35,688 nt of DNA from a virus. The notes beneath the pieces were generated by a model. That model was given only the letters and a program-made list of their open reading frames with translations. It had not been told where the DNA came from and did no database searches. The stretch is taken from UHGV virus genome UHGV-0123446. The stretch is one strand, 5' to 3'. A program made the translations under genes and the position numbers. Below, one piece after another: positions 1 to 34,704 of this stretch. The stretch's first letter is position 1, and each line of letters starts with the position of its first letter.

Positions 1-49
1 TTAGCAAGACTGTGTACATTTGTACACAATTGCAGAGAGAGGAAATGAC

Positions 50-586
50 ATGCGTCGCGCTAACGATCCGCAACGGCGAGAAAAAATTATCCAGGCCACG
101 CTGGAGGCGGTGAAACTTTACGGAATACATGCTGTTACACACCGCAAAATTGCTGCCCTTGCCGGGGTGCCGTTGGGATCGATGACCTACTATTTTTCAG
201 GAATTGATGAGTTGTTGCTGGAGGCGTTCAGCCGTTTTACTGAGATCATGTCCCGGCAATATCAGGCATTTTTTAGCGATGTTAGTGATGCTCCAGGCGC
301 ATGCCAGGCTATCACCGATATGATCTACAGCTCACAGGTCGCAACGCCGGATAATATGGAGCTGATGTACCAGCTCTACGCGCTGGCTAGCCGAAAACCG
401 CTCTTAAAAACGGTAATGCAAAACTGGATGCAGCGCAGTCAACAAACGCTCGAACAATGGTTTGAACCCGGAACCGCCCGCGCGCTTGATGCGTTTATTG
501 AGGGGATGACGCTGCATTTTGTCACCGACCGTAAGCCGCTATCACGCGAGGAGATTTTGAGGATGGTTGAGAGGATTGCTGGGTAG
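50..586 (+). CDS. rcdA: TetR-family transcriptional regulator RcdA (YbjK); the ORF-track start at 20 is probably an upstream in-frame extension
   Basis: N-terminal TetR-type HTH ([29 protein letters not shown]); recognised as E. coli YbjK/RcdA; neighbourhood with ybjL-ybjM-grxA matches the K-12-type locus. Confidence 0.8.
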
Positions 587-589
587 TAG

Positions 590-616
590 ATAAATTTCAG
601 GCAACAAAAAACCCAT
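590..616. repeat. attL core: 27-bp sequence ataaatttcaggcaacaaaaaacccat, repeated exactly at 32847..32873
   Basis: Exact 27-bp direct repeat bracketing the prophage; integrase gene lies immediately inside this copy. Confidence 0.75.
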
Positions 617-690: not shown

Positions 691-1743
691 TTACGGGGTA
701 ATGCCAACCGCTGCCGCCACTTTGTCGCCACTTGGCAGCGTTGCCAGAGGATTGAAACGGAGCGCCGTTTCCAGATGATCTGGTGCCAGATGTGCGTAAC
801 GCATAGTCATTTTTATATCGTGGTGTCCGAGAATTTTTTGTAAGGCGAGAATGTTTCCACCCGACATCATGAAGTGCGCCGCAAATGTATGGCGCAGAAC
901 GTGTGTGAGTTGACCGCGAGGGAGCACGATAGACGTTTTTTCCATCACGGATAAAAATTGAAAATAGCAGTCTGTAAAGAAATTGAACCCATCAAGCGCC
1001 ATGATCTCTTCGTAAAGCTCTTTACTGATAGGGATGCTTCTGTTTTTCTTCCCCTTCGTTCTGACAAAGGTAATTCGGTATTTGGTCACCTGTGAGCGGG
1101 TAAGATTTACGGCTTCACGCCAGCGTGCGCCTGTGCTTAAGCATATCTTAACTACCAGTGCCAGAATCGGGTCCTGACGTTTACAATCAGCCAGCAATTC
1201 AACAATCTGCTCATGGGTAAGCCATGCCATCTCTTTTTCTGCGATGGTGAATTTTCGCATGTTCTCCAGTGGGTTCGGATACGACCATTCGCCCAGGCGG
1301 GATAGTTCGCTAAAAACACTACTTAGATAGCTTTGCTCCAGGTTAATGGTGACCGGGCTTGCTCCTTTCTTCCATTTCTCGCTGAAGTAGATCTCACCTG
1401 TCAGGCGTTTATCTCGATAGTGGGCAAACATTTTAGAGGTGAGATCGGTTGCAAGGGGATTGCCCAGAGCGTCAACCATCAACAGCAATTTATCATAGAC
1501 ATGCTGCCCAGCGGTTAGAGATTTACCATGTAGTTTGAACCATAGCTCAACCACGTCTTTCAGTGTTCGACGATCCACTGATTCTCCCAGCCAGGGCTTT
1601 GCTTCGGTTTCTTCCATCGTATGGCGCTCAAAAGCCAGAGCTTCGCCTTTGGTGGCGAATTGTTTACGCACACGACGCCCACTACGTCCGGCGGGGTAAC
1701 ATTCGCAAAGCCATTTTCCTGTGGTGAGTTTTCGTACTGCCAT
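691..1743 (-). CDS. int: Phage integrase, tyrosine recombinase (P2/186 family); start taken at the internal ATG giving MAVRKLTTGKW
   Basis: C-terminal catalytic region with conserved R...HxxR...Y pattern (LTHVLRHTFAAHFMMSGGNILALQKILGHHDIKMTMRYAHL); adjacent to attL. Confidence 0.9.
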   Translation of the reverse strand: MAVRKLTTGKWLCECYPAGRSGRRVRKQFATKGEALAFERHTMEETEAKPWLGESVDRRTLKDVVELWFKLHGKSLTAGQHVYDKLLLMVDALGNPLATDLTSKMFAHYRDKRLTGEIYFSEKWKKGASPVTINLEQSYLSSVFSELSRLGEWSYPNPLENMRKFTIAEKEMAWLTHEQIVELLADCKRQDPILALVVKICLSTGARWREAVNLTRSQVTKYRITFVRTKGKKNRSIPISKELYEEIMALDGFNFFTDCYFQFLSVMEKTSIVLPRGQLTHVLRHTFAAHFMMSGGNILALQKILGHHDIKMTMRYAHLAPDHLETALRFNPLATLPSGDKVAAAVGITP

Positions 1744-1929
1744 AAAAAATGCCCTCCAATAGAGAGCATTTTTACTGTATGCATAACCAGTGTCAATGTA
1801 TGAAATCCTGCGACCATACATCTCACTGAAGCCATAATGAAGTTGGCTATTTTTTGCTATGTGAGTATGTGACTTTTGCGGTTAGCCTGCGGCTCATTGT
1901 TATATTAGGCGCAGATATAAAAGCAAAAT

Positions 1930-4409: not shown

Positions 4410-4636
4410 TGGCTGATGCAATGGATCTCGTACAGCAGCGCGTTGAAGAAGAACGCCAACGCCATATCCGTGCTGCCCGTGCCAAAACGCCGGGCGTGTC
4501 CCGCGTGCTTTGCGTTGAGTGTGAAGCGCCAATTCCGCCAGCACGCCGCCGTGCCATTCCGGGTGTGCAGCTTTGCATTACCTGTCAGGAAATCGCAGAG
4601 CTGAAAGGCAAACATTACAACGGAGGTGCTGTATGA
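4409..4636 (+). CDS. TraR/DksA-family C4 zinc-finger protein
   Basis: CVECEAPIPPARRRAIPGVQLCITCQ four-Cys motif typical of phage/plasmid TraR-like proteins; translationally coupled to flanking genes. Confidence 0.65.
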   Translation: MADAMDLVQQRVEEERQRHIRAARAKTPGVSRVLCVECEAPIPPARRRAIPGVQLCITCQEIAELKGKHYNGGAV

Positions 4637-5487
4637 GCACCATCCTGAAATGGGCAGGAAATAAAACCGCCATAATGTCCGAACTGAAAAAGCATCTTCC
4701 TGCTGGCCCGCGACTGGTTGAACCTTTCGCGGGTTCCTGTGCAGTGATGATGGAGACGGATTATCCCAGCTATCTTGTTGCGGATATTAATCCTGATTTA
4801 ATCAACCTCTATAAAAAGGTTGCTGCTGATTGTGAGGCGTTTATATCTCGTGCCAGAGCTTTATTTGAGGAAGCAAACAGGGAGGTGGCTTATTACAACA
4901 TAAGGCAGGAGTTTAATTACTCCACTGAAATTACTGATTTCATGAAAGCGGTATATTTCCTGTATCTCAATCGTCACGGTTACCGTGGTTTATGTCGCTA
5001 TAACAAGAGCGGGCATTTCAACATTCCCTACGGTAATTATAAAAATCCGTATTTCCCTGAAAAAGAAATTCGCGCATTTGCAGAGAAAGCCCAGCGGGCA
5101 ACGTTTATCTGCGCCAGCTTTGATGAAACGCTGGCGATGTTGAAGGTGGGGGATGTGGTGTATTGCGATCCGCCTTATGACGGTACGTTTTCCGGCTATC
5201 ACACTGATGGTTTCACTGAAGATGATCAGTATCACCTGGCATCCATTCTTGAACATCGGTCATCAGAAGGACATCCGGTCATTGTTTCTAACAGTAACAC
5301 GTCTTTGACCCGGTCCCTTTATCGTAATTTCACTCACCACTACATCAGGGCGAAACGCAGCATCGGCGTTGCAGCGGGGGAGGGAAAATTTGCAACAGAG
5401 ATGATTGCCACTAAATCTGCTAATTGGTTTAGTGCCGATTTTAGTAGGGGACGTGACTCTACTGTTATTTTCGGGGTGCAAGTGTGA
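4633..5487 (+). CDS. Orphan DNA adenine methyltransferase (Dam family, N6-adenine); ORF-track start 4573 is an extension
   Basis: N-terminal SAM-binding motif LKWAGNK...EPFAGSCAV and catalytic DPPY motif ([10 protein letters not shown]); no adjacent restriction endonuclease. Confidence 0.85.
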
Positions 5488-6314
5488 AAGAAATGCACCA
5501 CGGAATTCATCATTTCCATGGGACGCCTGTCTGGGGAAGTGCTGGCGACGTTCATCGTATTGCGGTGAGCGGAGCTGGCGCTTTCGTCTCCTATGTACGA
5601 CCAGATCAGATTGCGGCGTCCATTCAGCACGCTCAGGTCGTCGGCATTGATAACGGCGCATTTTCTGCATGGGTGCGTGGGCTAAAAATTAACTGGAGTG
5701 ATTTTTATAAATGGCTCCTGAACTATTACCACCATCCTAAGGTCGCTTTTTTTGTCATTCCTGATGTTGTGGACGGAGGTGAACGTGACAATGATGCCCT
5801 GATAAACGAAGTTCCGAAAATGTTCTACGGGAAGGCAACTCCCGTCTGGCATCTGCACGAGTCAATCGATCGGCTTATCGAGCTATGTCGTGAATGGCCT
5901 CGTGTCTGCTTTGGATCGTCTGGTGAATATGCGGCTATCAGAACTGCGCACTGGCATCGTCGTATGCAGGACGCTTTTGAAGCAATTTATTGCCGACACA
6001 ATTTCAAAACAGCTGTTCATGGTTTGCGCATGCTTGACGGTCGTGTGTTGGGAAATTACCCACTGGCGACTGCCGACAGTACAAATCTTGCCTGCAATGT
6101 CCCCAAATTTAATAGCAAATATCCTGAGCTGACGCGGGCTATTCAGGAGGCTGAGTATTCGCGCAATCTGACGGAAAAGGAGCTGAAAGCTGTCATTCTG
6201 AAAAACCGTTGCGCAATTTTAAAAGGTGCAATTGAAGCTGTTCGCCCACCTTCAGTTTCTGATTGGCTGTCGAATGGTTTGCAGCCTTCACAGCTCGAAC
6301 TGGAGATTGCGTAA
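5484..6314 (+). CDS. Uncharacterised protein (about 275 aa) translationally coupled to dam; function unknown
   Basis: GTG start overlaps the dam stop (GTGA), stop overlaps the gene A start (TAATG); no recognisable nucleotide-binding or zinc motif. Confidence 0.5.
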
Positions 6315-8686
6315 TGAACTACAGCTATTCCTGGAATGCTGAGAAAAAAGCAATCAATCCTTACGTAGAGACAGAAGAGCAATCTTCAGTTTCTGCGCTT
6401 TCAAACCTGATCGCTCTGTACGCTGCCGATAACGAGCAGGAACAGCTGCGCCGCGAGGCACTGAGTGATCAGGTCTGGGAGCGTTATTTCTTTAATGAAT
6501 CCCGTGATCCTGTCCAGCGCGAAATGGAGCAGGATAAGCTCATTAGTCGGGCAAAGCTGGCGCATGAGCAGCAGCGTTTTAATCCAGATATGGTCATTCT
6601 GGCGGACGTCAATGCCCAGCCTTCCCATATCAGCAAGCCGCTGATGCAACGTATTGAATACTTCAGCAGCCTGGGCAGGCCAAAGGCTTATTCCCGCTAT
6701 TTGCGTGAGACGATTAAGCCATGTCTGGAACGGCTGGAGCATGTACGCGACTGTCAGCTATCCACTTCTTTTCGCTTTATGGCAAGCCATGAAGGGCTGG
6801 ACGGCCTGCTGATCCTGCCTGAAATGAGTCAGGATCAGGTGAAACGCCTGTCCACCCTGGTAGCTGCGCATATGAGCATGTGCCTTGATGCAGCTTGTGG
6901 CGATTTGTATGTCACCGATGACGTTAAGCCAGAAGAAATCCGCAAGACATGGGAAAAGGTGGCAGCGGAAACCCTGCGTCTGGATGTCATCCCGCCTGCG
7001 TTTGAGCAACTCCGCCGGAAAAGAAACCGCCGTAAACCCGTGCCCTATGAACTCATTCCGGGTTCGCTGGCGCGTATGTTGTGCGCTGACTGGTGGTACC
7101 GGAAATTATGGAAGATGCGTTGCGAATGGCGGGAAGAGCAGTTGCGTGCTGTCTGCCTGGTCAGCAAAAAAGCATCTCCCTATGTCAGCTATGAAGCCGT
7201 GATGCATAAACGTGAGCAGCGCCGTAAGTCGCTGGAGTTTTTTCGTTCTCATGAACTGGTGAACGAAGACGGCGACACGCTGGACATGGAGGATGTGGTA
7301 AACGCCAGCAGCAGCAACCCTGCGCATCGCCGCAATGAGATGATGGCCTGTGTTAAAGGCCTGGAGCTTATCGCGGAAATGCGCGGTGACTGCGCCGTTT
7401 TCTACACCATCACCTGTCCGTCACGTTTCCATTCCACGCTAAATAATGGCAGGCCCAACCCAACTTGGACAAATGCGACGGTAAGACAAAGCAGTGATTA
7501 TCTGGTCGGCATGTTTGCTGCATTTCGTAAGGCGATGCACAAAGCCGGATTGCGGTGGTATGGCGTGCGGGTGGCTGAGCCGCATCATGACGGTACAGTT
7601 CACTGGCACCTGTTGTGTTTTATGCGCAAAAAAGACCGCCGCGCCATCACTGCATTACTGCGTAAGTTTGCCATCCGTGAAGACCGCGAGGAACTGGGCA
7701 ATAACACTGGGCCGCGCTTTAAGTCTGAGTTGATTAACCCGCGCAAAGGTACGCCAACAAGCTACATCGCGAAATACATCAGTAAGAACATTGACGGGCG
7801 TGGTCTGGCTGGCGAGATCAGCAAGGAAACGGGTAAATCTCTGCGTGATAACGCTGAATACGTTAATGCCTGGGCGTCTCTGCATCGTGTTCAGCAATTC
7901 CGCTTCTTTGGCATTCCGGGGCGTCAGGCTTACCGTGAACTGCGATTGCTGGCTGGTCAGGCGGCAAGGCAACAGGGTGACAAAAAAGCAGGTGCGCCGG
8001 TACTGGATAACCCGCGCCTTGATGCCATTCTGGCTGCAGCTGATGCTGGTTGCTTTGCCACCTACATCATGAAGCAGGGCGGCGTACTGGTTCCCCGTAA
8101 ATATCACCTCATCAGAACCGCTTATGAAATCAACGAAGAGCCGACCGCCTATGGCGATCACGGTATTCGTATTTATGGCATCTGGTCACCCATTGCAGAG
8201 GGCAAGATCTGCACTCATGCAGTGAAGTGGAAAATGGTTCGTAAAGCCGTTGACGTTCAGGAGGCGGCAGCCGACCAGGGCGCTTGCGCCCCTTGGACTC
8301 GTGGCAATAACTGTCCCCTTGCTGAAAGCTTGTACCAACAAGGGAAAGACAAATCAGCTGATGGGGATACCAGAACGGATATCACCCGCATGGATGACAA
8401 GGAATTGCACGATTACCTGCACAGTATGAACAAAAAAGAGCGCCGGGAACTGGCTGCAAGGTTACGCCTGGTGAAACAGAAACGGCGTAGAGACTACAAA
8501 CAGCGAATTACAGATCATCAGCGACAGCAGCTCGTCTATGAACTGAAGTCCAGAGGATTTGATGGCAGCGAGAAAGAGGTCGATTTACTCCTTCGCGGTG
8601 GCAGTATTCCGTCAGGAGCAGGCCTGCGTATCTTCTATCGGAACCAGCGTTTGCAGGAAGATGATAAGTGGCGGGATCTGTATTAA
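6314..8686 (+). CDS. A: Replication initiation protein gpA (rolling-circle replication endonuclease), P2/186 family
   Basis: About 790 aa, last gene of the early operon; start ATG overlaps the upstream stop; ORF-track start 6263 is an extension. Confidence 0.85.
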
Positions 8687-8778: not shown

Positions 8779-8798
8779 TACTGTAAATATAAACAGTG
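8779..8798. promoter_or_regulatory. LexA (SOS) box taCTGTaaatataaACAGtg
   Basis: CTGT-N8-ACAG with AT-rich spacer, about 40 bp upstream of the 8839 ORF and the DinI-like gene. Confidence 0.6.
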
Positions 8799-8838
8799 GT
8801 TATGTATACAGTATTGCTTTGGTGTCATAGGAGGAAAG

Positions 8839-9027
8839 ATGCAGGACTATTTTTTGGAGTCTTTGAAGCTCCAGCGCATTGATTTTTTTCTTAAGCTTGT
8901 AGCGGCTAGTGAGTGTAGTGATGAAGAGAAGGGGCTGGCCCTGCAGTGGGTTTCTGAACTGACAGATGAACTCATGGCAAAAATCAGAACCCATGAATAC
9001 AACCGCTCAATGGATGTCATCAGCTGA
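8839..9027 (+). CDS. Small protein (62 aa) downstream of the LexA box; possible N-terminal part or partner of a Tum-like antirepressor
   Basis: aggagg SD just upstream of the ATG; ends 10 bp before the DinI-like ORF in a different frame. Confidence 0.4.
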   Translation: MQDYFLESLKLQRIDFFLKLVAASECSDEEKGLALQWVSELTDELMAKIRTHEYNRSMDVIS

Positions 9028-9037
9028 GGTGACTTTT

Positions 9038-9271
9038 ATGCGCATTGAAATAATGATCGATAAAGAGCAGAAGATTAGCCAGTCTACACTGGACGCCCTT
9101 GAATCCGAGCTTTACCGCAATCTGCGCCCCCTGTATCCCAAAACGGTAATTCGTATCCGCAAAGGTAGCTCTAACGGTGTGGAACTGACCGGACTGCAAC
9201 TGGACGAAGAAAGAAAACAAGTGATGAAAATTATGCAGAAGGTGTGGGAAGACGACAGCTGGCTGCATTAA
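9038..9271 (+). CDS. DinI-like protein (77 aa)
   Basis: MRIEIMIDKEQKISQSTLDALESELYRNLRPLYPKTVIRIRKGSSNGVELTGLQ...VWEDDSWL resembles E. coli DinI (MRIEVTIAK...) along its length; LexA box upstream. Confidence 0.7.
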   Translation: MRIEIMIDKEQKISQSTLDALESELYRNLRPLYPKTVIRIRKGSSNGVELTGLQLDEERKQVMKIMQKVWEDDSWLH

Positions 9272-9404
9272 GAAACGTTGCTGGCGTCTGAACTTGTTTC
9301 TGGCGTCAGCAAGGTTGAACAACGAGCCCTTGCGAGGCGTTAGCTCTGTAGTGCATGTCTATGCCGCATGAGATCGCATGATCGTTTGAGGATCGTTTTT
9401 GCTA

Positions 9405-9431
9405 AGGCCCGCCAGAACTGGCGGGCTTTTG
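9405..9431 (+). terminator. Rho-independent terminator (GC-rich 9-bp stem gcccgccag/ctggcgggc then TTTTG)
   Basis: Inverted repeat followed by a T-run, downstream of the DinI-like gene. Confidence 0.5.
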
Positions 9432-9475
9432 CGTAGATCATGCAGGTGCATGAAAACCACTACATAAAGCGGGCA

Positions 9476-9494
9476 GGCGTGGCGGGGATACGAG
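9476..9494. other. Candidate cos site (cohesive-end sequence)
   Basis: GGCGTGGCGGGGATACGAG: the first 13 nt match my recollection of the 186 cohesive end (GGCGTGGCGGGGAAAGCAT; P2 GGCGAGGCGGGGAAAGCAC); lies in the A-to-Q interval where cos is expected. Confidence 0.4.
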
Positions 9495-9504
9495 CGCGCG
9501 CTCA

Positions 9505-9533
9505 CTGACAGTTTTCAGAAAAGTATATATAAT
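9505..9533 (+). promoter_or_regulatory. Near-consensus sigma70 promoter (CTGACA, 17-bp spacer, TATAAT) for the 9571 gene
   Basis: -35 at 9505..9510 and -10 at 9528..9533; gene start at 9571. Confidence 0.45.
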
Positions 9534-9570: not shown

Positions 9571-10605
9571 ATGGATAAAAGATATCAGGTTTTTGTTAGT
9601 TCAACTTTTGCTGATCTTGAAGAAGAAAGACAGGAAGTAATGCAAGCACTGCTGGAGCTTGATTGTATGCCAGCAGGAATGGAATTATTTCCAGCAACAA
9701 ATAGTGATCAGTGGAGTTTAATAAAAAAAATAATTGACGATAGTGATTATTATATTGTTATCTTGGCAGGGCGTTATGGTTCAATTGGTCCTGATGGAAT
9801 AAGCTATACAGAAATGGAGTATCGTTATGCTTTGGAAACTGGTAAGCCAGTTATAGGTTTTATTCATAAAGATAAAAGTAACCTCCCCGCAAAACGTTGT
9901 GAGTCAAACCCTGAAGGCGTAGAAAAACTAAAGGCTTTCGAAGAGCTAGTTAAAACAAAATTATGTCGTTTTTGGGAGTCTCCTGCAGAGTTAGGTAGCC
10001 AGGTTAGCAGAAGTTTGATTAGACTAATTAAAGAATGTCCTGCAATTGGGTGGGTTAAAGGAAATTTAGTAACTAATGATGGTGATGCAAAGGAAATATT
10101 GAAATTAAAAAGGCGAATTGAGGAGCTTGAAAGTCAACTTGTATCAAGTATGACTGAAGCGCCTGCAGGTGCAGAAAAACTATCTCAAGGAGATGAGCTT
10201 TTTGAATTGGATTATGAATTCTGTGTGTCGCCTACAGAATGGAGACATAATGGTGAAGAATATACCGATAAGGTCAAATTAAGCTGGAACGATATTTTTT
10301 CATATGTTTCGCCTTTGATGATAGATGAGATAGTGGATGATAAGCTATATAGTGCTTTAAATAACTGTGTGCGAAATGCAGTTCAAGATATCATCTATGA
10401 GGATTTTAAAGATATGAATTTATTATCTTTAAAAGTATCTAATTCTGATTTCCAAACAATAAAAGTGCAGTTTAGGGCGCTTGGGTTAATTATTAAAAGT
10501 GAAAAGAGTAGAAGTGTTAAAGATAAAGGTACTTATTGGACTTTAACACCGTATGGCGAAAATTTAATGACAACATTGAGAGCGATTAAAAAAACTTTGG
10601 TATAG
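9571..10605 (+). CDS. Cargo protein of 344 aa with DUF4062/TIR-like N-terminal domain; candidate anti-phage defence protein
   Basis: Clean ORF with its own promoter and terminator; AT-rich; N-terminal pattern YQVFVSSTFADLEEER...DYYIVILAGRYGS...SYTEMEYRYA...GKPVIGFI recalled as the DUF4062 signature; no Walker A; coiled-coil-like stretch KEILKLKRRIEELESQL; unknown C-terminal half. Confidence 0.6.
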   Translation: MDKRYQVFVSSTFADLEEERQEVMQALLELDCMPAGMELFPATNSDQWSLIKKIIDDSDYYIVILAGRYGSIGPDGISYTEMEYRYALETGKPVIGFIHKDKSNLPAKRCESNPEGVEKLKAFEELVKTKLCRFWESPAELGSQVSRSLIRLIKECPAIGWVKGNLVTNDGDAKEILKLKRRIEELESQLVSSMTEAPAGAEKLSQGDELFELDYEFCVSPTEWRHNGEEYTDKVKLSWNDIFSYVSPLMIDEIVDDKLYSALNNCVRNAVQDIIYEDFKDMNLLSLKVSNSDFQTIKVQFRALGLIIKSEKSRSVKDKGTYWTLTPYGENLMTTLRAIKKTLV

Positions 10606-10610
10606 ATAAC

Positions 10611-10645
10611 AAAGGCCGTTCATATATGAACGGCCTTTGTTTTAT
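10611..10645. terminator. Perfect 28-bp palindrome (aaaggccgttcatat|atatgaacggccttt) with T-runs on both sides; bidirectional terminator between the cargo gene and Q
   Basis: Perfect inverted repeat 10611..10638 between convergent genes, followed by gtttta on the + strand. Confidence 0.6.
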
Positions 10646-11679
10646 TGTGTGGGAAAGCTATATGATTCGAATTTTATAATAACTTTACCAAGCCATTTAT
10701 TTACTTCTTGTATATGCTTTTGCAGTGGTGTTAGCTCATTTCGCACAAAGACGCGGCTGGCCTTCTCCACATCCCCAAACCCCCCGACATTATTAGGCAT
10801 AATCCCCATCATTTGCGGTGGCACACGATGCGCCGCCATCATGTCATCCCGGCTCACGTTCTTGATATTCAAAAACTCATCCTTCGCTGCGACCTCTGAC
10901 AACGGGATAATCTGAAGCCCGTCCTTTTTGCCGTTAGGCGAGTACATAAACAGGTTGCGGAAGTTGCCTGGACCTTTGGCGCTTTTCATCGCGTTGCGGA
11001 GGTTGTTCACATCCTCCTGGTTCTGCGCGGCATCGGTCATATACATGATGAAGCCTGCATGACTGCCGTTAATGTAATACTTGCGGCGGAACAGCGTGGC
11101 AGACTCGTTGAGCAGGGCGGATGGAATAGCAGAAAGATAACCGGGCAGACCGTAGATCTCCTGGTTGATGTCCGGTTCCATCAGATGAAAGATGCTGCCT
11201 TTCGTGAACTGATATGGCTGCGTGGCCATACCGTATTGCACAAACCAGTAGGTATCCAGGTCTAACCCGCGTCGGGTGTATTTTGCCAGGGCAGGTTCAA
11301 GGGCGATAACTTCACCGAAGCGGTTCGTGCGTTTCTCCAGGTAGGCGTTACCAAATACCAGATAGTCCTGCACAAAACGCGAAAAAGCCTGCTGGCTGAG
11401 CAGCGGGTGAGGGATGTAGGTGCTGGTCAGAATGTTGCACTTTACTGCAATCGGGGAACTATGATGCACGGCAGCGCGGAAGGTGCGCGCCAGTCCGTCA
11501 AAGCTGACGGGCGGTTCATACCAGCGGTCCATCTGTACGCATTCCACATAATCCAGCAGTTCTCGGCGGTCCAGAACAGGAACGGGATCGCCGAAACTGA
11601 ATGCTTCGGCTGTAGTTTGACTTTTAAGCTGGATCTGTTTCGTCGCCGCAGCGCGGTTCTTCTTACTCTTTCCCATCAA
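10642..11679 (-). CDS. Q: Portal (capsid portal) protein gpQ
   Basis: 345 aa, adjacent to and co-oriented with the large terminase; P2 Q-P arrangement. Confidence 0.9.
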   Translation of the reverse strand: MMGKSKKNRAAATKQIQLKSQTTAEAFSFGDPVPVLDRRELLDYVECVQMDRWYEPPVSFDGLARTFRAAVHHSSPIAVKCNILTSTYIPHPLLSQQAFSRFVQDYLVFGNAYLEKRTNRFGEVIALEPALAKYTRRGLDLDTYWFVQYGMATQPYQFTKGSIFHLMEPDINQEIYGLPGYLSAIPSALLNESATLFRRKYYINGSHAGFIMYMTDAAQNQEDVNNLRNAMKSAKGPGNFRNLFMYSPNGKKDGLQIIPLSEVAAKDEFLNIKNVSRDDMMAAHRVPPQMMGIMPNNVGGFGDVEKASRVFVRNELTPLQKHIQEVNKWLGKVIIKFESYSFPTQ

Positions 11680-13442
11680 AAAATCTCCACAATATTGCTG
11701 GTATTGGCGGATTCGCCCTGCAGCGGTTCGTTAAACAGTGCGTGCATCGTTGCCCAGGCCAGATCGGCGTGGCTGGCTTCTTCGCTGCGGCTGGCTTCAT
11801 AGGTCGGGCGGTTGCCACTGGCGGTGGTGGCGCGACGGATTGCCATAAAGGACTGCGCTATGTCGGTGTGTCCGGCGTCAAACTCCAGACGGCGGTGGCT
11901 GATAATGTCGTAGGCCTTGAGTACCAGGGCGTTTTTAACGTTGGGGTTGTAGACAAACTCCCGGACGGCAGGAAAAAACGCTTTCACGTTCTCGTAAACC
12001 CCGTGACCAACGCCGGTTGAGTCGATACCGATATAGGTCACGTTGTACTGTTCGGTCAGTTTTTTGATGGCGTCAGCCTGGGCGCGGAAGTCCATTCCGC
12101 GCCACTGGTGACGCTCAAGAATGCGGAACTTACCGCCCGGCACGGCTGGCGGCGCCACCACCACGCATCCGGCGCTGTCGCCGTTCTGCGTACCTTTCGC
12201 CGGGTCATATCCGATCCACACTTCGCGCCAGCCAAACGGGCGCAGGGCCAGTGCATGAAAGTCGGTCCAGACTTCCCAACTGTCCACCATGCACGCCTGC
12301 AGCTCGCTGAGCGGGAACACAGACGCGAGATCGTCCACGAACTCACACATCAGCAGGTTCTGGTATTCGTCCGGGCTGTACTCCATGCGCAACTGGTCGA
12401 GGTCGAACAGGTTACAGCCGCCGCGCACCGCATCTTCCACAGTGACTATCTGGCGGTACTGCCCGTCTGCGCACAGCAGGCCGGGGGCCAGATTGCTGTG
12501 GGACAGGTCGATGTCCACCTTATCGGCTTTGTTGCGCCCTCGGTTGAACAGTGCACCGGACCAGAACGGATAAGCACTGTGTGTCAGGCTGGATGGCGTG
12601 GAAAAATAGGTTTGTCGCCATTTTTTGTGAATAGCCATACCGGAAGCCACTTTGCGCAGCTCCTGGAATTTCGGTATCCAGAAATATTCATCCAGATACA
12701 GGTTGCCGTGGTAACTCTGGGCCGTGCGGGCATTGGTGCCGAGGAAGTACAGTGTGGCCCCGTTAGGAAGCACCATCGGATCGCCTTTCAGCTCCACCTC
12801 CACTTCTTTGGCGAAGTCGATGATGTACTGCTTAAAGACGTGGGCCTGAGCCTTGCTGGCGGAAAGGAAAATCTGGTTACGCCCGGTTAGCAGGGCGTCA
12901 ATCAGGGCTTCACGGGCAAAATAGAAGGTCGCGCCGATCTGGCGTGACTTCAGCAGGTTGCGGATGCGGTTGGTTTTTCCGGCTTCCCACCAGTGGCGCT
13001 GGTAGTTGAACATGGAGGAATGGAAGATTTCTTCCAGCTTCTCAATCTGTTCATCGGTGAAAACGTTCTTTTCCGGCTGACGGCGCGGGCCTTTGTTGCG
13101 GTTGGCGACGTTAGGGTTTAAGTCGGCTTCGTTGCCGCCATTGTTAAACTTGCCGATCCGCGCATGGCGCTCCGACTGGCGCGCCAGCAGGTCAATCTCT
13201 TTGAAATCTTTCCCTTCTTTGTGCTCCTTCATAATGAGCTGGCAGTAGCGTGCGGCGGTGGTGAGCTGCATCTGATCCAGCGGCCCATAGTCACCCCACT
13301 TGTCGCGTTTTTTCCAGCTGTGAACGGTTGCAACTTTCTCGCCCAGCATTTCAGCAATGCGGGCTACGCGGTATCCCTGAAAGTACAGCAGCATGGCCTG
13401 CCGACGGGGATCGAGATCTGCGGGTGTCAGTGTGGTGTTCAT
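11676..13442 (-). CDS. P: Terminase large (ATPase) subunit gpP
   Basis: 588 aa; terminase-like ATPase region (Walker B-like LYLDEYFWIP); divergent from the O-N-M-L operon. Confidence 0.9.
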   Translation of the reverse strand: MNTTLTPADLDPRRQAMLLYFQGYRVARIAEMLGEKVATVHSWKKRDKWGDYGPLDQMQLTTAARYCQLIMKEHKEGKDFKEIDLLARQSERHARIGKFNNGGNEADLNPNVANRNKGPRRQPEKNVFTDEQIEKLEEIFHSSMFNYQRHWWEAGKTNRIRNLLKSRQIGATFYFAREALIDALLTGRNQIFLSASKAQAHVFKQYIIDFAKEVEVELKGDPMVLPNGATLYFLGTNARTAQSYHGNLYLDEYFWIPKFQELRKVASGMAIHKKWRQTYFSTPSSLTHSAYPFWSGALFNRGRNKADKVDIDLSHSNLAPGLLCADGQYRQIVTVEDAVRGGCNLFDLDQLRMEYSPDEYQNLLMCEFVDDLASVFPLSELQACMVDSWEVWTDFHALALRPFGWREVWIGYDPAKGTQNGDSAGCVVVAPPAVPGGKFRILERHQWRGMDFRAQADAIKKLTEQYNVTYIGIDSTGVGHGVYENVKAFFPAVREFVYNPNVKNALVLKAYDIISHRRLEFDAGHTDIAQSFMAIRRATTASGNRPTYEASRSEEASHADLAWATMHALFNEPLQGESANTSNIVEIF

Positions 13443-15496: not shown

Positions 15497-16147
15497 ATGA
15501 GCCTGAGTCCCGCACGGCAGCATCGCCTGCGCGTTCAGGCTGAACAGGCCGCTCGCGAGGGTGGCAGTGTTCGCCACGCGTCGGGCTATGACCTGATGCT
15601 GCTGCAACTGGCGGAAGACCGCCGCCGTCTCAAGGGCGTTCAGTCCACGGTCAAAAAAGCGGAAATCAAAGTGGAGCTGCTGCCGAAGTACGCCGCCTGG
15701 GCAGAGGGTGTCCTGGCTGCCGGAGGCGCTCAACAGGATGACGTGCTGATGTACGTGATGCTGTGGCGCATTGATGCCGGAGATTATGCCGGAGCGCTGG
15801 AGATCGGGCGTCATGCCCTTCGTCATGGCTGGGTGATGCCGCTGGGTAACCGCAACGTGCAGACCGTGCTGGCAGAGGAAATGTCAGACGCGGCGCAGAG
15901 CGCAATGCTTGCCGCCACCGGCTTTGATGCGGATCTATTACTGCAGACGCTGGAACTGACAGACGGTCTGGATATGCCGGACCAGTCACGGGCGCGTCTG
16001 CATAAAGCGATTGGCGCTGTCCTGAGTGAAAGCAATCCGGCGTCCGCCCTTAATCATCTCAACCATGCGTTACAGCTCGATCCCCGCTGTGGCGTGAAAA
16101 AAGACAAACAGCAGCTGGAGCGCAGACTGCGCAATGACAGCCGCTGA
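15497..16147 (+). CDS. M: Terminase small/endonuclease subunit gpM
   Basis: 216 aa following N; P2-type order. Confidence 0.8.
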   Translation: MSLSPARQHRLRVQAEQAAREGGSVRHASGYDLMLLQLAEDRRRLKGVQSTVKKAEIKVELLPKYAAWAEGVLAAGGAQQDDVLMYVMLWRIDAGDYAGALEIGRHALRHGWVMPLGNRNVQTVLAEEMSDAAQSAMLAATGFDADLLLQTLELTDGLDMPDQSRARLHKAIGAVLSESNPASALNHLNHALQLDPRCGVKKDKQQLERRLRNDSR

Positions 16148-21290: not shown

Positions 21291-21888
21291 TCTGCTGCCA
21301 CCGGGTTCAACGCCACTGGAGCGCCGACTGGCGCAAACCTGTAGCGGGATTTCTGATTTGCAGGTGCCGCTGCGTGACTTGTGGAATCCGGCTACCTGTC
21401 CGGTCAGCTTCCTGCCTTATCTCGCCTGGGCGTTCTCTGTGGATCGCTGGGACGAGGGCTGGACAGAAAGCGTCAAACGCCAGGTAGTGAAGGATGCTTT
21501 TTATATTCATCAGCATAAAGGAACCACCAGTGCCGTGCGGCGGGTGGTGGAACCGTTCGGATTCCTGATCCGCATTATTGAGTGGTGGCAGACCGGAGAA
21601 ACACCGGGCACGTTTCGCCTGGATATCGGCGTGCAGGACCAGGGCATCACTGAAGATACCTATCTGGAACTTGAGCGACTGATAAGCGATGCCAAACCAT
21701 GTAGCCGCCACATGATCGGCATGTCCATCAATCTGCAGACCAGCGGCCCGCATTGGGTGGGAGCCGCCAGCTATCTTGGCGAAGAAATCACGATCTATCC
21801 GTATATCAACGAAACGATTATTTCCGGTGGCACCGCGCATGAAGGCGGGGCGGTCCATGTTATTGACACAATGAGAGTGAATCCATGA
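21283..21888 (+). CDS. I: Baseplate/tail protein gpI
   Basis: 201 aa, between J and the tail-fibre gene. Confidence 0.8.
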
Positions 21889-23285
21889 GCACAAAATTTT
21901 ATACCCTGCTGACGGATATTGGCGCGGCGAAACTTGCCAGCGCCGCCGCGCTCGGTGTGCCGCTAAAAATTACCCATATGGCGGTGGGCGATGGCGGCGG
22001 AGCATTGCCAACGCCGGACGCAAAGCAGACGGTACTGGTAAATGAGAAACGCCGGGCTGCGCTGAATATGCTCTATATCGACCCGCAGAACAGCAGCCAG
22101 ATTATTGCTGAACAGGTGATCCCTGAAAACGAGGGCGGTTGGTGGATACGTGAAGTGGGCCTGTTTGATGAGTCCGGGGCATTGATTGCCGTGGGCAACT
22201 GCCCGGAAAGCTATAAGCCGCAACTGGCTGAAGGCAGCGGGCGCACCCAGACCGTGCGCATGGTGCTGATTACCAGCAGCACGGACAATATCATCCTGAA
22301 AATCGACCCTGCTGTAGTGCTGGCAACCCGTAAATACGTCGATGATAAAGTCCTGGAATTAAAGCTGTATGTGGATGACCAGATGAGAAACCACATTGCC
22401 GCACAAGATCCTCATACCCAGTATGCGCAGAAACATAATCCGACATTTACCGGAGAACCAAAAGCGCCGACGCCTGCAGCAGGAAATAACACCACTCGGA
22501 TTGCGACCACAGAGTTTGTTCAGGCCGCTATTACTGCTCTGATTAACGGTGCGCCAGCCACGCTGGACACACTGAAAGAAATTGCCGTAGCAATTAACAA
22601 TGACCCGAAATTCAGTACCACTATTAATAATGCGCTGGCACTGAAAGCGCCGCTGTCGAGTCCGGCACTTACCGGAACGCCAACAGCACCTACTGCGGCA
22701 CAGTCGGTCAACAATACACAGATTGCCACTACGGCTTTTGTGAAATCGGCGATTGCAGGAATGGTGGGTTCTGCACCTGCGGCACTGGATACATTGAACG
22801 AACTGGCGGCGGCGCTGGGGAATGACCCGAACTTTGCCACGACAATGCTTAATGCGCTAGCAGGTAAACAACCGCTGGACAATACGCTGACTAATTTGAG
22901 TGGAAAGGATGTAGCTGGTCTTCTCGCATACCTTGGTTTGGGAGAAGCGGCTAAAAGGAATGTAGGGACAGGGGCGAATCAGATACCTGATATGGGTAGC
23001 TTCACGCTTTCTGTTTCAGGTACTGGATATCAAAAATTACCATCAGGTTTTATTCTTCAGTGGGGCTCAATCGGCGCACCAGGCATTGCACAGGATGTAG
23101 TAACCCATTTCCCGATTGCATTTCCAAACAGATGTCTGCGTGTTTTGGTCTCACAAGACTACACACCAGATAGCGGGGCTGTTGGTTATATTGCCTGTGC
23201 AGGTTTTAGTCCCGACCCGGTTAAATTTATATCCAGAGCCAGTACTCCTGGCCTAGGCGCTTCATTTTTAGCGTTAGGCTGTTAA
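21885..23285 (+). CDS. H: Tail fibre protein gpH; the C-terminal part (from about 22935) lies inside the invertible segment
   Basis: Conserved P2 gpH-like N-terminus [18 protein letters not shown]...; repeated A/T/N-rich fibre repeats; C-terminus follows the hix-like site. Confidence 0.85.
22921..22946. other. hix/gix-like invertase recombination site (left), inside gene H
   Basis: ttctcgcataccttggtttgggagaa; its reverse complement shares the half-site TTCTCCCAAACCAA with the site at 24846..24871 and resembles hixL (TTCTTGAAAACCAAGGTTTTTGATAA). Confidence 0.55.
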
Positions 23286-23306
23286 TTTAGCTATATGGAG
23301 TGAAAA

Positions 23307-23747
23307 ATGAATTACATATATTCCGCGACTACAAACTCTTTCTATCCGCTGGAGATGAAAGAGGATTACACTCAAGCTGACTCATGGCCAGATGATGCTG
23401 TTGAAGTTGATGAGCAAGTGTATATTGCGTTTTCCGGATTACCGCCGAAAGGAAAAATCCGTATCGCTGGAGAAAATGGTTTTCCTGCATGGTCCGAAAT
23501 TCCACCACCAACACATGAGGAACAAATTGCTGCAGCCGAACTGGAGAAGCAGCAATTGATTAATCAGGCCAACGATTATATGAACAGTAAACAATGGCCT
23601 GGTAAAGCGGCTATTGGTCGTCTGAAAGGTGACGAACTGGCGCAATATAATTTGTGGCTGGATTACCTGGACGCACTGGAACTGGTCGATACTTCCGGTG
23701 CGCCAGATATTGAATGGCCTACGCCTCCGGCAGTTCAGGCCAGATGA
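23307..23747 (+). CDS. G: Tail fibre assembly chaperone gpG (currently expressed orientation)
   Basis: 146 aa, conserved Tfa C-terminal pattern (LELVDTSGAPDIEWPTPP); directly after H. Confidence 0.8.
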   Translation: MNYIYSATTNSFYPLEMKEDYTQADSWPDDAVEVDEQVYIAFSGLPPKGKIRIAGENGFPAWSEIPPPTHEEQIAAAELEKQQLINQANDYMNSKQWPGKAAIGRLKGDELAQYNLWLDYLDALELVDTSGAPDIEWPTPPAVQAR

Positions 23748-24324
23748 CATCCGGCGCGGTGCTGGTATCTGTTGCCGTCACCGCGTCAATGTAATCCAGC
23801 ACAGCGTTAAGTCGGGTGGTTTCTGCCTGCGTCAGCTTCCGCCCGGCCTGCAATTTCAGTTGAATCAGACTGATGGAAGCCATTGCAGTATCAATCAGTG
23901 ACTGACGCTGTGCTTCTGCCGCGTCTACTGCGGCGCTATGCTGTGCCTCAGTATCGGTCACCCATTTCTTACCATCCCATTTATCGAATGGCGTTAACGG
24001 GGCGATAGTGGTTGTATTTTCAGGATAATCACCCGGAGCTGTGATTTCTTTGGCGTCTCCCGTTTCGGTGTTATAGACGATTTCACCGCGATGGTCTGGC
24101 ACATATTCCCATGCGTTTAAATCCATCGAACGGCAGATAGCATAACCCGCCTTATGTGTGCCAGGAGCATCTAAACAGGAATATGCAGGGATACCGACAC
24201 CCACAGCAAGATATTCAGTTGATGCAGAAATATACTCCCGTGTCTCACTGTCATAGTTATAAACGGTAATCTCTCCTGCCTTTGTGGCAATAAATTTACT
24301 ATTCAAGATGGCGTTATACATCAT
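23719..24324 (-). CDS. Alternative tail fibre assembly chaperone (inverse-orientation partner)
   Basis: 201 aa, Tfa-like C-terminus (DTSTAPDVIWPELPEA); convergent with and overlapping G; downstream of the alternative fibre tip segment. Confidence 0.75.
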   Translation of the reverse strand: MMYNAILNSKFIATKAGEITVYNYDSETREYISASTEYLAVGVGIPAYSCLDAPGTHKAGYAICRSMDLNAWEYVPDHRGEIVYNTETGDAKEITAPGDYPENTTTIAPLTPFDKWDGKKWVTDTEAQHSAAVDAAEAQRQSLIDTAMASISLIQLKLQAGRKLTQAETTRLNAVLDYIDAVTATDTSTAPDVIWPELPEA

Positions 24325-24857
24325 GCAGCCCTCACAATGTAATTAAATGAAATATTACGTGGGCGTGTCTCTGCTGCACCGACAATACTGGTACTCAACC
24401 CCGTCGCTGTTCGTTTGTTATTTTTATTTCCTTCAATCAGACAGTTGTAATCATCATTACCAATTAACGAATTAGTGGCATCAATACCGTCCGGGGACAA
24501 GGCATTAGTTGTAGAACTTAAAGTCAGCATCTCGTCTGAACTTGGAAGATTTTTTAATGGTATTTCATTGCGAGAAATACCCGCGTAAAAAAAGGACTCA
24601 TGCCTGTGCGCTTCAAAAGAGTCATCCTGAAGACTTAGCAAGGCACGTCCCGCATCCACACCACGCCCGTCATCCCAGCCACGAATAAACTCACCACGTA
24701 AATCAGGCAATTTATTTGTCGGATAAGCCTTTGCCAGTTCCGGGTATTCTTCAGCAGAAAAAGCGGCACCGTTACATTTCAGCCAGCCTGTTGGCGGAGT
24801 GGCGGAAGGCCACGGAACAGGCACGCCAACGGGTAATGCCGAACCTTCTCCCAAACC
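24321..24857 (-). CDS. Alternative tail-fibre C-terminal segment (promoterless; would be fused to the H constant part after inversion)
   Basis: Begins at the hix-like site with the same GLGE junction as H; contains the LPVGVPVPWPS...GWLKCNG...LPDLRG motif typical of Mu/P1/e14-type fibre variable parts. Confidence 0.7.
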   Translation of the reverse strand, partial: GLGEGSALPVGVPVPWPSATPPTGWLKCNGAAFSAEEYPELAKAYPTNKLPDLRGEFIRGWDDGRGVDAGRALLSLQDDSFEAHRHESFFYAGISRNEIPLKNLPSSDEMLTLSSTTNALSPDGIDATNSLIGNDDYNCLIEGNKNNKRTATGLSTSIVGAAETRPRNISFNYIVRAA

Positions 24858-24871
24858 AACGTTTAAGGAAA
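24846..24871. other. hix/gix-like invertase recombination site (right)
   Basis: ttctcccaaaccaacgtttaaggaaa; inverted relative to the site at 22921..22946; about 50 bp upstream of the invertase gene. Confidence 0.55.
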
Positions 24872-24920
24872 TGCAGAGGTAACAGCTAACTGGCATCATC
24901 TCCGGTTTTTATTCAGGGGG

Positions 24921-25493
24921 ATGATCATGCTTATTGGCTATGTACGCGTGTCAACAAATGACCAGAACACCGATTTGCAACGTAATGCACTGAACTGCGC
25001 GGGATGTGAGCGGATTTTTGAGGACAAAATCAGTGGCACTAAGTCCGACAGACCGGGGCTGAAAAAACTACTCAGGACACTATCGGCAGGAGACACGCTG
25101 GTTGTCTGGAAGCTGGACAGGTTGGGACGCAGTATGCGGCATCTTGTTACGCTGATAGAAGAGTTGCGCCAGCGTGGCGTGAATTTCCGAAGCCTGACTG
25201 ACAGTATTGATACCAGTACCCCAATGGGCCGTTTCTTTTTTCATGTCATGGGTGCCCTGGCTGAAATGGAACGCGAACTGATAGTTGAACGTACCAGGGC
25301 GGGGATTGCTGCAGCTCGCGACAAAGGCAGAGTAGGTGGACGCCGTCCTAAGTTGACCACCGAACAGTGGGCACAGATTGGACGTTTACTAGAGGCCGGA
25401 GAATCAAGACAGCGTATTGCACTGATTTTTGATGTGGGCGTTTCTACCATTTATAGAAAATTTCCGGCAAATAAGAGCAGTGAATCCCCCTGA
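24921..25493 (+). CDS. Serine DNA invertase (Hin/Gin/Pin/Cin family)
   Basis: N-terminal resolvase catalytic domain IGYVRVSTNDQ...VVWKLDRLGRS...MGRFFFHVMGALAEMERELIVERT and C-terminal HTH; closely resembles Hin. Confidence 0.9.
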   Translation: MIMLIGYVRVSTNDQNTDLQRNALNCAGCERIFEDKISGTKSDRPGLKKLLRTLSAGDTLVVWKLDRLGRSMRHLVTLIEELRQRGVNFRSLTDSIDTSTPMGRFFFHVMGALAEMERELIVERTRAGIAAARDKGRVGGRRPKLTTEQWAQIGRLLEAGESRQRIALIFDVGVSTIYRKFPANKSSESP

Positions 25494-32846: not shown

Positions 32847-32873
32847 ATAAATTTCAGGCAACAAAAAACCCAT
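32847..32873. repeat. attR core (27-bp copy of the attL core)
   Basis: Exact repeat of 590..616. Confidence 0.75.
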
Positions 32874-32905
32874 CAACCTTGAACCGAAATGGCGGGGTTG
32901 ATGGG
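32860..32905 (-). terminator. Probable ybjL rho-independent terminator (10-bp stem cccatcaacc/ggttgatggg, then a T6 run on the minus strand); the att core overlaps its stem and T-tract
   Basis: Perfect 10-bp inverted repeat with 16-nt loop, followed on the minus strand by TTTTTTG; downstream of the ybjL stop. Confidence 0.4.
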
Positions 32906-33018
32906 CTCCACAAAATGGGGACATCAAAGAAAAGCAGTGGCACTAATTAAGACTGATGCCCTGCGGAAAAGTTCTGCGGTTGTGCAAAAAAAATTTCATT
33001 TTCAGGGCAACTTCAGTT

Positions 33019-34704
33019 TTATCCTAATCCTGGCCATACCATGACGATGATTGTCCCTGCCAGCGTCAGCAGGACGTTGGCGATTGCATAGGTGCCCGCA
33101 TAGCCCAGCGCCGGGATGTTACTGCGAGCTGTATCACTGATGATCTCCATTGCCGGCGCGCAGGTGCGTGCGCCCATCATTGCGCCGAATAACAGTGCGC
33201 GGTTCATTCGCAATACATAAGCACCGAACAAGAAACAGATAACCACTGGCACAAGACTGACAATCAATCCGGCAATCAACATCTGACCGCCAATCGCGCC
33301 CAGGCCGTTATTAATACCGCTACCGGCGCTCAGACCAACGCCTGCCATAAACACCATTAAGCCGAACTCTTTCACCATGCTTAATGCACCCTGCGGAATG
33401 TAACCGAAGGTCGGGTGGTTAGCGCGCATAAATCCCAGCATAATTCCGGCGAATAACAACCCGGCAGCGTTCCCCATGCCGAAACTGAATGTGCTGAACT
33501 GGAAGGTGATCATCCCGATCATCAGCCCAATAACAAAGAAGGCGCAGAATGCCAGCAAGTCAGTGACCTGGCTGTGAATCGAGATAAAGCCGATGCGATC
33601 GGCGATGGTTTTTACGCGACGGGCATCGCCGCTGACTTGTAAAACGTCACCTTTGTTAAGCACGACGTTGTCATCTATCGGCATCTCAATCTGGCTACGA
33701 ATGACGCGGTTAAGGAAGCAACCGTGATCGGTCAACTTCAGTTGTGCGAGACGTTTGCCCACGGCGTTATGGTTTTTAACGACCACTTCTTCAGTGACGA
33801 TACGCATGTCGAGAAGGTCACGATCGAAAACTTCTTTGCCGTTACGGAAGCTGGGATCGAGTCGGGCGTGGGCGTCGGGATAGCCTACCAACGCTATTTC
33901 ATCTCCCATTTGTAGCACAGCATCACCGTCTGGATTCGCCAGAATCCCGTTACGTCGAATACGTTCAATGTAGCAGCCGGTTTGTCGATAAATACCCAGT
34001 TCACGCAGATTTTTGCCGTCGGTCCAGGCCACCAGCTCCGGGCCGACGCGGTAGGCGCGGATCACCGGTAAATAAACCTTACGGTTGGCATCAGTGTCCA
34101 GGCCACGTTCGCGGGCGATTTGCTGGGCGCTGGTCTGTAAGTCCTGATGCTGCAATTTCGGCAAGTAACGCGCACCAACAATCAAACTCACCAGACCGAT
34201 TAAATAGGTTAAGGCATACCCGAGGCTCAGATTATCCAGTGCCAGTGAGAGCTGCCTGCTTTCCATGCCGGAATGACGCAGTGTATCGCCAGCACCGACC
34301 AGAACCGGTGTCGACGTCATAGAGCCAGCTAACATACCGGCCGTCAGGCCAATATCCCAGCCAAACAGCTTACCTAACCCTAAGGCGATCACCAGCGCAC
34401 TGCCAACCATCACCAGTGCTAACATTAGGTAATTTTTCCCATCGCGAAAAAAAATGGAAAAAAAGTTCGGTCCGGCTTCGACCCCGACGCAGAAAATAAA
34501 CAGCATAAAGCCAAGATTAAGCGCGTCGGTGTTAATGCTGAAATGTTGTTGGCCTAATAACAGCGATACGACTAAAACGCCAATGGAATTACCCAGTTGG
34601 ATCGAACCAAGTCGTAATTTCCCGAGACATAGCCCAAGCGCGAGGACCACAAATAATAACAGAATGTAATTCCCATTTAACAATTCGGCGACGTTTATAT
34701 TCAC
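33019..34704 (-). CDS. ybjL: Putative transport protein YbjL (AAE-family transporter with two cytoplasmic regulatory domains)
   Basis: 561 aa with multiple TM segments at both ends and a central soluble region; recognised as E. coli YbjL; position next to ybjM/grxA. Confidence 0.85.

Follow-up and report, generated by a model that had tools for sequence, protein, structure and literature searches.

A predicted P2/186-type cos site adjoins a Swarozyc-type DUF4062 gene in a complete-looking prophage

The window, meaning the whole 35,688-nt stretch of DNA analysed here, carries a prophage of about 32.26 kb between two copies of a 27-bp att core (ATAAATTTCAGGCAACAAAAAACCCAT), attL at 590..616 on the plus strand and attR at 32847..32873. 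An integrase gene (691..1821, minus strand) and a gpA-family replication gene (6263..8686) are present, together with P2-type portal, terminase, scaffold, capsid and head-completion genes. The portal gene, a homologue of P2 Q and 186 W, lies at 10642..11679 on the minus strand (Pfam Phage_portal). Next to it is the gene for a terminase large subunit of the P2 gpP type, the enzyme expected to cut cos (11676..13442, minus strand; Pfam Terminase_5, Terminase_6N and Terminase_6C), and a small subunit of the P2 gpM type is encoded at 15497..16147 on the plus strand (Pfam Phage_term_smal, E = 7e-40). Integrase, CI, CII, Dam, gpA, portal, both terminase subunits, scaffold, capsid, gpL and gpD are all full length by Pfam coverage, and the prophage looks complete.

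A full-length gene for the RybB small RNA (Rfam RF00110, 105 bits) is found at 32860..32938 on the minus strand. Because its 3′ end overlaps the 27-bp att core, the prophage is integrated into the 3′ end of rybB, regenerating the gene. The host flanks carry a TetR-family gene (20..586) and an Asp-Al_Ex/TrkA_C permease gene (33019..34704, minus strand). Within the prophage, a tail-fibre gene (21885..23285) and an assembly gene (23307..23747) are both on the plus strand, while an alternative tail-collar/receptor-binding fragment (24321..24899) and a second assembly gene (23719..24324) are on the minus strand. A serine invertase gene of the resolvase family (24921..25493) adjoins the alternative tail-fibre genes, and the stretch 21885..25493 looks like an invertible tail-fibre region.

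The interval of interest lies between the replication gene and the portal gene. Its first element is a plus-strand module (8779..9271) made up of a LexA-box-like site (TACTGTAAATATAAACAGTG, CTGT-N8-ACAG at 8781..8796), a 62-aa ORF (8839..9027) and a gene for a 77-aa DinI-family protein (9038..9271; Pfam DinI). This module is the counterpart of the tum operon of phage 186, whose record shows p95, a LexA site and tum at the equivalent relative position. The 62-aa ORF and the DinI gene look as if the single tum gene of 186 had been divided in two, and the analogy suggests that the module may provide SOS-inducible antirepression as in 186. Downstream, already within the conserved cos block described below, is a hairpin with a T-run (9401..9432, plus strand; inverted repeat I1; fold −24.6 kcal/mol, z-score −5.1), the probable terminator of the SOS/DinI operon. 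A hairpin occupies the equivalent position in 186, where the record annotates the terminator t95b upstream of cos, so that the p95-tum-t95b arrangement as a whole is mirrored by window 8781..9432.

Beyond this terminator the order is a 19-mer at 9476..9494, the heptamer CGCGCGC, a promoter-like site, a gene of 344 codons, a hairpin and the convergent portal gene. The candidate promoter is sigma-70-like (CTGACA-17-TATAAT, 9505..9533, plus strand), matches the consensus at 11 of 12 positions and falls within sequence specific to the cassette in the 7 E. coli genomes that carry it; judged from these matches, it would be active. The gene (9571..10605, plus strand) is the single ORF between promoter and terminator and encodes a 344-aa DUF4062 protein, described below as the cargo. 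Between it and the portal gene lies a hairpin with a perfect 15-bp stem (10608..10641), which folds at −24 kcal/mol on either strand with z-scores of −5.8 and −9.2 and is probably a bidirectional terminator.

The 19-mer GGCGTGGCGGGGATACGAG (9476..9494, plus strand) is unique within the window and lines up, gap-free, with the 19-nt ends annotated for 186, P2 and P4, which makes it the predicted cohesive-end sequence (cosN core). A previous reading made from sequence only had quoted the cos sequences of 186 and P2, and both are correct: cosL of P2 is annotated in NC_001895 (1..19) as GGCGAGGCGGGGAAAGCAC, and cos of 186 in NC_001317 (1..19) as GGCGTGGCGGGGAAAGCAT. The match that it reported also holds against these records, with 13 of 13 leading bases of the window 19-mer shared with 186 and 12 of 13 with P2, and the 19-mer carries the GGCG(A/T)GGCGGGG start of cohesive ends in the P2/186 family. 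The remaining positions (14-19) read TACGAG in the window, AAGCAT in 186 and AAGCAC in P2. A search of both strands of the window found the 13-mer GGCGTGGCGGGGA exactly once, against about 0.0014 exact matches expected from base composition, in agreement with the earlier statement that a chance match of this length is unlikely. At two or fewer mismatches, 3 matches were found against a shuffle mean of 1.16, which is chance level. The site is also where cos is expected, between the A and Q genes, with the gpA-family gene on one side and the portal gene on the other.

Joining the two ends of the P2, 186 and P4 records recreated their circular junctions, which we aligned with the window, a comparison that had been proposed for 186 and P2 along with the original cos call. 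The flanks of the 19-mer are homologous, without gaps, at all three junctions. The window, P2, 186 and P4 share a common order of several TGCAT motifs, (G/C)TGCAT(T/G)AAAACC, AAAG(C/T)GGGC(A/G), the 19-mer and (T/C)GCGCGC, with complete divergence beyond. On the side of the DinI gene, the conserved block at 9350..9475 (plus strand) is the probable terminase recognition region, as judged from this alignment and from conservation across 51 loci (below). It contains the stretch GTGCATGAAAACC...AAAGCGGGCA, and the AAAACC...AAGCGGGC stretch and repeated TGCAT motifs are common to P2, 186, P4 and the window. Motifs of the form GCATG/CATGC occur 5 times (starts at 9353, 9366, 9376, 9439 and 9448) against 0.27 expected. 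On the portal side the only conserved bases are CGCGCGC (9495..9501, plus strand), probably a second half-site for nicking; (T/C)GCGCGC stands at the same position in P2, 186 and P4, and the sequences diverge afterwards. Read by eye, the reverse complement of this heptamer, GCGCGCG, resembles GCGGGCA on the opposite flank of the 19-mer.

The block has a further feature in the direct repeat GATCGTTT, present twice at 9380..9398 and giving two GATC sites inside the putative recognition region. Both sites are conserved at 0.8-0.9 in the 51-locus profile, and the phage encodes an adenine methyltransferase of the D12 class (Dam-type) at 4573..5487; methylation and packaging may be linked.

To see how far this arrangement extends among relatives, we scanned one genome per species with the portal protein of the window, which yielded 80 loci. 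In 70 of these GGCG(A/T)GGCGGGG (one mismatch allowed) was present upstream of the portal gene, and these 70 were analysed for cos, though a few of the most distant (e.g. L081) may be chance motif matches. The identical 19-mer was found in 34 of the 70. For the conservation profile we used 51 distinct loci, from different species, with the NTACGAG form of the end. Mean column conservation in this profile is 0.79 at −125..−60 relative to the 19-mer, 0.88 at −60..−1, 0.98 across the 19-mer itself and 0.97 at +19..+26, falling to 0.49 at +26..+40 and 0.36 at +40..+79. BLAST gave the same limits: homology to relatives begins at about 9351-9353, and homology to 93 phage records stops at 9501/9502. 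In window coordinates the conserved cos block is therefore about 9350..9501 (~150 bp). Two of the loci (L008 and L028) are short contigs of a single assembly, Escherichia sp. E1V33, and both start exactly 40 nt upstream of the cos 19-mer, with cos-to-portal intervals of 1207 bp and 159 bp respectively. These starts probably represent an assembly break at a cos block common to two co-resident P2-like prophages.

Taken together, we consider it highly likely that 9476..9494 is the cos cohesive-end core of a complete 32.3-kb prophage of the P2/186 type (Peduoviridae, Fels-2/Wadgaonvirus-like). The exact nick positions and the elements bound by terminase are predictions from homology, and because overhang positions 14-19 differ from both 186 and P2, the bottom-strand nick is placed by alignment only. 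For two isolated phages, SEN8 and EtG, the record is linearised at precisely the point that corresponds to 9475/9476. That of phage Cartapus stops at the counterpart of window 9443, which we take as an arbitrary linearisation. In the literature and records searched, we found no mapped termini for the ATACGAG variant of the end; the annotations that we found are similarity based, and that of SEN8 reads ‘putative’.

After excision and replication, the terminase encoded at 11676..13442 and 15497..16147 would recognise the ~125-bp block at 9350..9475 with its GCATG repeats. It would then introduce staggered nicks, on the top strand before 9476 and on the bottom strand after 9494, to leave 19-nt 5′ overhangs. 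On the portal side it would need only about 7 bp (CGCGCGC, 9495..9501), and the sequence from 9502 to the 3′ end of the portal gene would be free to vary, as a classical cargo slot. P4 offers a natural comparison for this last step. It is packaged by the P2 terminase (PMC9122126), yet it shares only the cos block with P2 and diverges 8 nt after the 19-mer into gop and beta, from which it follows that a few base pairs suffice for the terminase on that side.

Three other explanations of the 19-mer were weighed. The first accepts the cos site as genuine by descent and holds that the prophage is defective or the site unused, so that a ‘left end’ here would have no physical meaning. Many P2-like prophages are cryptic, and the related record 500465-1 has IS-disrupted replication genes and a split portal gene, both of which speak for this view. 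In the window, however, the ORFs examined (a subset of the prophage genes) are all full length by Pfam coverage, both att copies are intact, and the cos block agrees with the 51-locus consensus at nearly all highly conserved positions, so we regard a dead site as unlikely.

The second places cos here as well but gives the cohesive end a length or register other than the 19 nt of 186, with the bottom nick shifted. This would fit the divergence of the 3′ third of the 19-mer from 186 and P2, the presence of A, C, G or T at position 13 among relatives, and the fact that no end mapping was found for the ATACGAG variant. Against it, (T/C)GCGCGC stands at an identical distance from GGCG in P2, 186, P4 and all 51 loci, with no indels. 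This constant distance argues for the same nick spacing, and a shifted nick is in our view quite improbable.

The third, that the resemblance is due to chance and the real cos lies elsewhere, for example at 10606..10642 beside the portal gene, draws on the position of cos only ~170 bp from the portal stop codon in P2 and 186 and on the chance-level frequency of the 13-mer at two mismatches, but it can be set aside as extremely improbable given that the exact 13-mer is unique, that ~125 bp of flank align with P2, 186 and P4 and are conserved in 51 loci, that 10608..10641 is a perfect hairpin terminator containing no cos-like sequence, and that the two 2-mismatch matches (24655 and 30475) sit within tail genes and lack cos flanks.

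With 9476..9494 as cos, the virion map would be fixed, the left end falling at 9476 and the right one at 9475 with the 19-nt overhang added. Packaged DNA would then have the DinI module at its right end and, at its extreme left between cos and the Q homologue, the DUF4062 cassette, as the sequence-only reading had proposed. Its estimate that the cargo promoter begins about 10 bp from the cohesive end was also close, since the −35 hexamer starts 11 nt after the 19-mer.

The cassette occupies 9502 to ~10700, within the gpA-gpQ interval and adjoining cos. Its left boundary, at 9502, is sharp. GC content is 29-38% in the cassette, and remains so to ~10700, compared with 52% for the window. Homology to the closest phage backbones resumes at ~10691-10720, within the portal gene, and the last ~25 portal codons (~10642..10715) are AT-rich like the cassette and encode a protein sequence different from that of near-identical backbones. 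Among complete E. coli genomes, the DNA of this portal tail was found only in the 7 that have the DUF4062 cassette, and the tail of the portal gene appears to travel with the cassette. That the AT-rich cassette reaches into the 3′ part of the portal gene is consistent with ordinary recombination between that gene and the conserved cos block. We also considered cargo swaps driven by the joining of cos cohesive ends. This idea is unsupported, the boundaries being explicable without it, and P2 and P4 reportedly almost never exchange defence genes (2026 NAR study), which fits poorly with exchange through cos ends.

The cargo protein carries an N-terminal DUF4062 domain (PF13271; E = 1.5e-29, residues 6-87, full model covered). 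Over its full length it matches KpSwz, the Swarozyc protein of Klebsiella pneumoniae (PDB 10wc/11cq/11cv; E = 6.6e-69, residues 1-341 against 2-324), with the C-terminal alignment reaching residue 341 of 344. The two proteins are 41% identical overall; the N-terminal halves reach 51% and the C-terminal halves 30%. The catalytic glutamate of KpSwz, E82 in the PDB chain (E97 if numbering starts at native residue 16, as in the KpSwz 16-C construct), has residue E81 of the cargo as its counterpart in the alignment, and the motif S78-Y79-T80-E81 is invariant in 19 homologues of 58-75% identity. KpSwz is reportedly a TIR-like NADase that responds to a phage portal protein by depleting NAD+, with abortive infection as the outcome (bioRxiv 10.64898/2026.05.01.722283). 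Phage-triggered NAD+ hydrolysis and protection from phage are described for KpSwz (same preprint) and for an Enterobacteriaceae homologue, and DUF4062 (NIR) domains are assigned to several defence systems in two more preprints of 2026.

By homology, the cargo is predicted to be a single-gene defence system of the Swarozyc family, with a predicted TIR-like NADase domain and a C-terminal auxiliary domain. The NADase would deplete NAD+ when the C-terminal domain senses a protein of an infecting phage, the trigger in KpSwz being the portal. Since identity in the sensing domain is only 30%, the trigger of the window protein may differ and is not predictable. PADLOC-DB 2023 did not recognise the cargo, a result that is uninformative because this library predates the 2026 DUF4062 papers. 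Neither an accession nor a sequence for the ‘EcDUF4062’ that Osinski et al. tested could be found in their supplementary material, and in the literature searched there was no experimental test of this exact 344-aa protein.

Copies of the cassette were found in prophages of 7 complete E. coli genomes, and a 70%-identical version was found in Klebsiella prophage contigs, where it occupies the same slot, 67 nt after cos. A 74%-identical homologue sits in a non-phage chromosomal context. A BLAST search of the cassette against the phage collection gave no match.

The sequence-only reading had called the position of the cassette an unusual insertion point relative to P2, where tin and old lie on the other side of cos. 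The statement about P2 is correct, and the P2 lineage behaves as described: the cos-to-Q interval is empty (contiguous) in 1537 of 1624 genomes with P2-lineage E. coli prophages. The claim of an unusual position does not hold for the lineage of the window, in which cargo between cos and portal is the rule and the hotspot is catalogued. In the 70 loci the portal stop lies a median of 1.6 kb from cos (range 101 bp to >3 kb); 59 loci have an interval of >300 bp, and the other 11 have one of ≤300 bp, as in P2 and 186. Among 186-type E. coli prophages, 47/68 break homology between cos and the terminator/portal stop and 21/68 have the empty 186 arrangement. Retrons Ec67 and Ec86 are reportedly found between cos and the portal terminator in 186-related prophages (Dodd and Egan 1996, going by its title).

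Some phages match the window at 97-99% identity in the backbone as far as 9501 and have different genes in the slot, including a TIR-domain protein in 500465-1, Hypoth_Ymh in vB_EcoM-813R9, and a hypothetical protein with an HNH endonuclease in SEN8. At the same place in E. coli genomes we found PIN, DUF4145, HNH and other genes. In P2-like genomes, the stretch from cosL to the Q homologue had been suggested as a hotspot before (PMC5694545), and Rousset et al. (2022) described a cos-adjacent defence hotspot between gpA and gpQ with 1,650 gene arrangements in 18,150 loci (PMC9122126). The present cassette is itself in that catalogue. Table S5B of PMC9122126 lists ‘DUF4062’ as system #67 with 63 occurrences, the representative being identical over all 344 aa, and WP_001513676 appears there in a locus listed as hypothetical + DinI + ... 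+ DUF4062. Earlier work thus covers the cos family, the hotspot and also the identical cassette in its present position, the last in the 2022 catalogue.

Two E. coli relatives have a second insertion point on the gpA side, at ~9343/9351, where extra genes stand between the DinI gene and the cos block while the DUF4062 cassette is unchanged. One (L091, 2270..3000 in the numbering of that locus) has a single extra gene on the minus strand and the other (L092, 2544..3792 in its own numbering) has two on the plus strand. These loci show that cargo can also enter, independently, at a second slot to the right-end side of cos. Lineages differ in how they use each side of cos, which modestly refines the single A-Q locus as published.

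A broader reading would treat gpA-gpQ as two lineage-specific slots around the ~150-bp cos block and, in addition, would have the portal tail co-adapted to the cargo against self-triggering. We regard this combination as very doubtful. For the slots themselves, P2-type phages may use only the right-end side and Fels-2/186-type phages mostly the left-end side. If the co-adaptation were true, an induced prophage would not trigger its own abortive-infection gene. We found no support for a portal tail co-adapted to Swarozyc, as the 70%-identical Klebsiella Swz in the same slot adjoins a different portal tail. The 7 E. coli cassettes are 99% identical and so probably derive from one acquisition, which makes their linkage to the tail uninformative.

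The practical value of assigning 9476..9494 to cos is one of annotation, namely a predicted virion map for the prophage and the identification of its cargo as a Swarozyc-type defence gene. From sequence alone, the terminase of the P2 family appears to tolerate any sequence from 8 nt beyond the cohesive end, and such tolerance would explain the build-up of cargo there in P2-like phages and P4. Current understanding is unchanged, apart from a small refinement in the split between lineages, with the portal side empty in P2-type prophages and filled in the lineage of the window.

Among known systems, 186 resembles the window in the first 13 nt of cos, in the right-end flank (TGCAT repeats, CTGCATTAAAACC and AAAGTGGGCA) and in the GCGCGC of the +1..+7 flank. 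The neighbours are also alike: in both, cos is flanked by an SOS-controlled DinI/tum module and, across from it, by the portal gene. The differences are that 186 has 177 bp of non-coding DNA between cos and portal where the window has a 1.15-kb cassette, and that 186 has orf97 on the right-end side. P2 and P4 (NC_001895 and NC_001609) have the same cos architecture, the leading bases agreeing with P2 at all but one of 13 positions, and a 55-bp cos core shared by the two is attributed to Ziermann and Calendar (1990, as cited in PMC5694545). The cargo of P4 (gop, beta, cII) starts within a few bases of the left cohesive end, on the side that is also used in the window, whereas the tin and old genes of P2 are on the opposite side of cos from the window cargo. 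In the Salmonella phage SEN8 (NC_047753, Felsduovirus) an identical 19-mer stands at base 1 and is labelled ‘putative cos site’, an assignment made by annotation and not by end mapping. SEN8 also has two accessory genes (hypothetical protein and HNH endonuclease) between cos and portal, although these differ from the cargo of the window. Another close relative, Escherichia phage 500465-1 (NC_049342; L005 in our set), has a replication region interrupted by IS21/IS100-like genes, and its portal and terminase are annotated in pieces; the record may represent a defective prophage.

The cargo shares with KpSwz the form of a single-gene system, the N-terminal DUF4062 domain joined to a C-terminal auxiliary domain, and the conserved catalytic glutamate. 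Unlike KpSwz, the window protein is prophage-borne and is encoded back-to-back with the prophage's own portal gene. The locus resembles the gpA-gpQ hotspot in its sharp left boundary at cos, in its right boundary at the terminator/portal 3′ end, and in cargo that varies between near-identical phages, and it differs from it in no essential respect. In Rousset et al. (2022; PMC9122126) the gpA-gpQ region counts as a single locus; here the cargo of the window is resolved to the portal side of cos.
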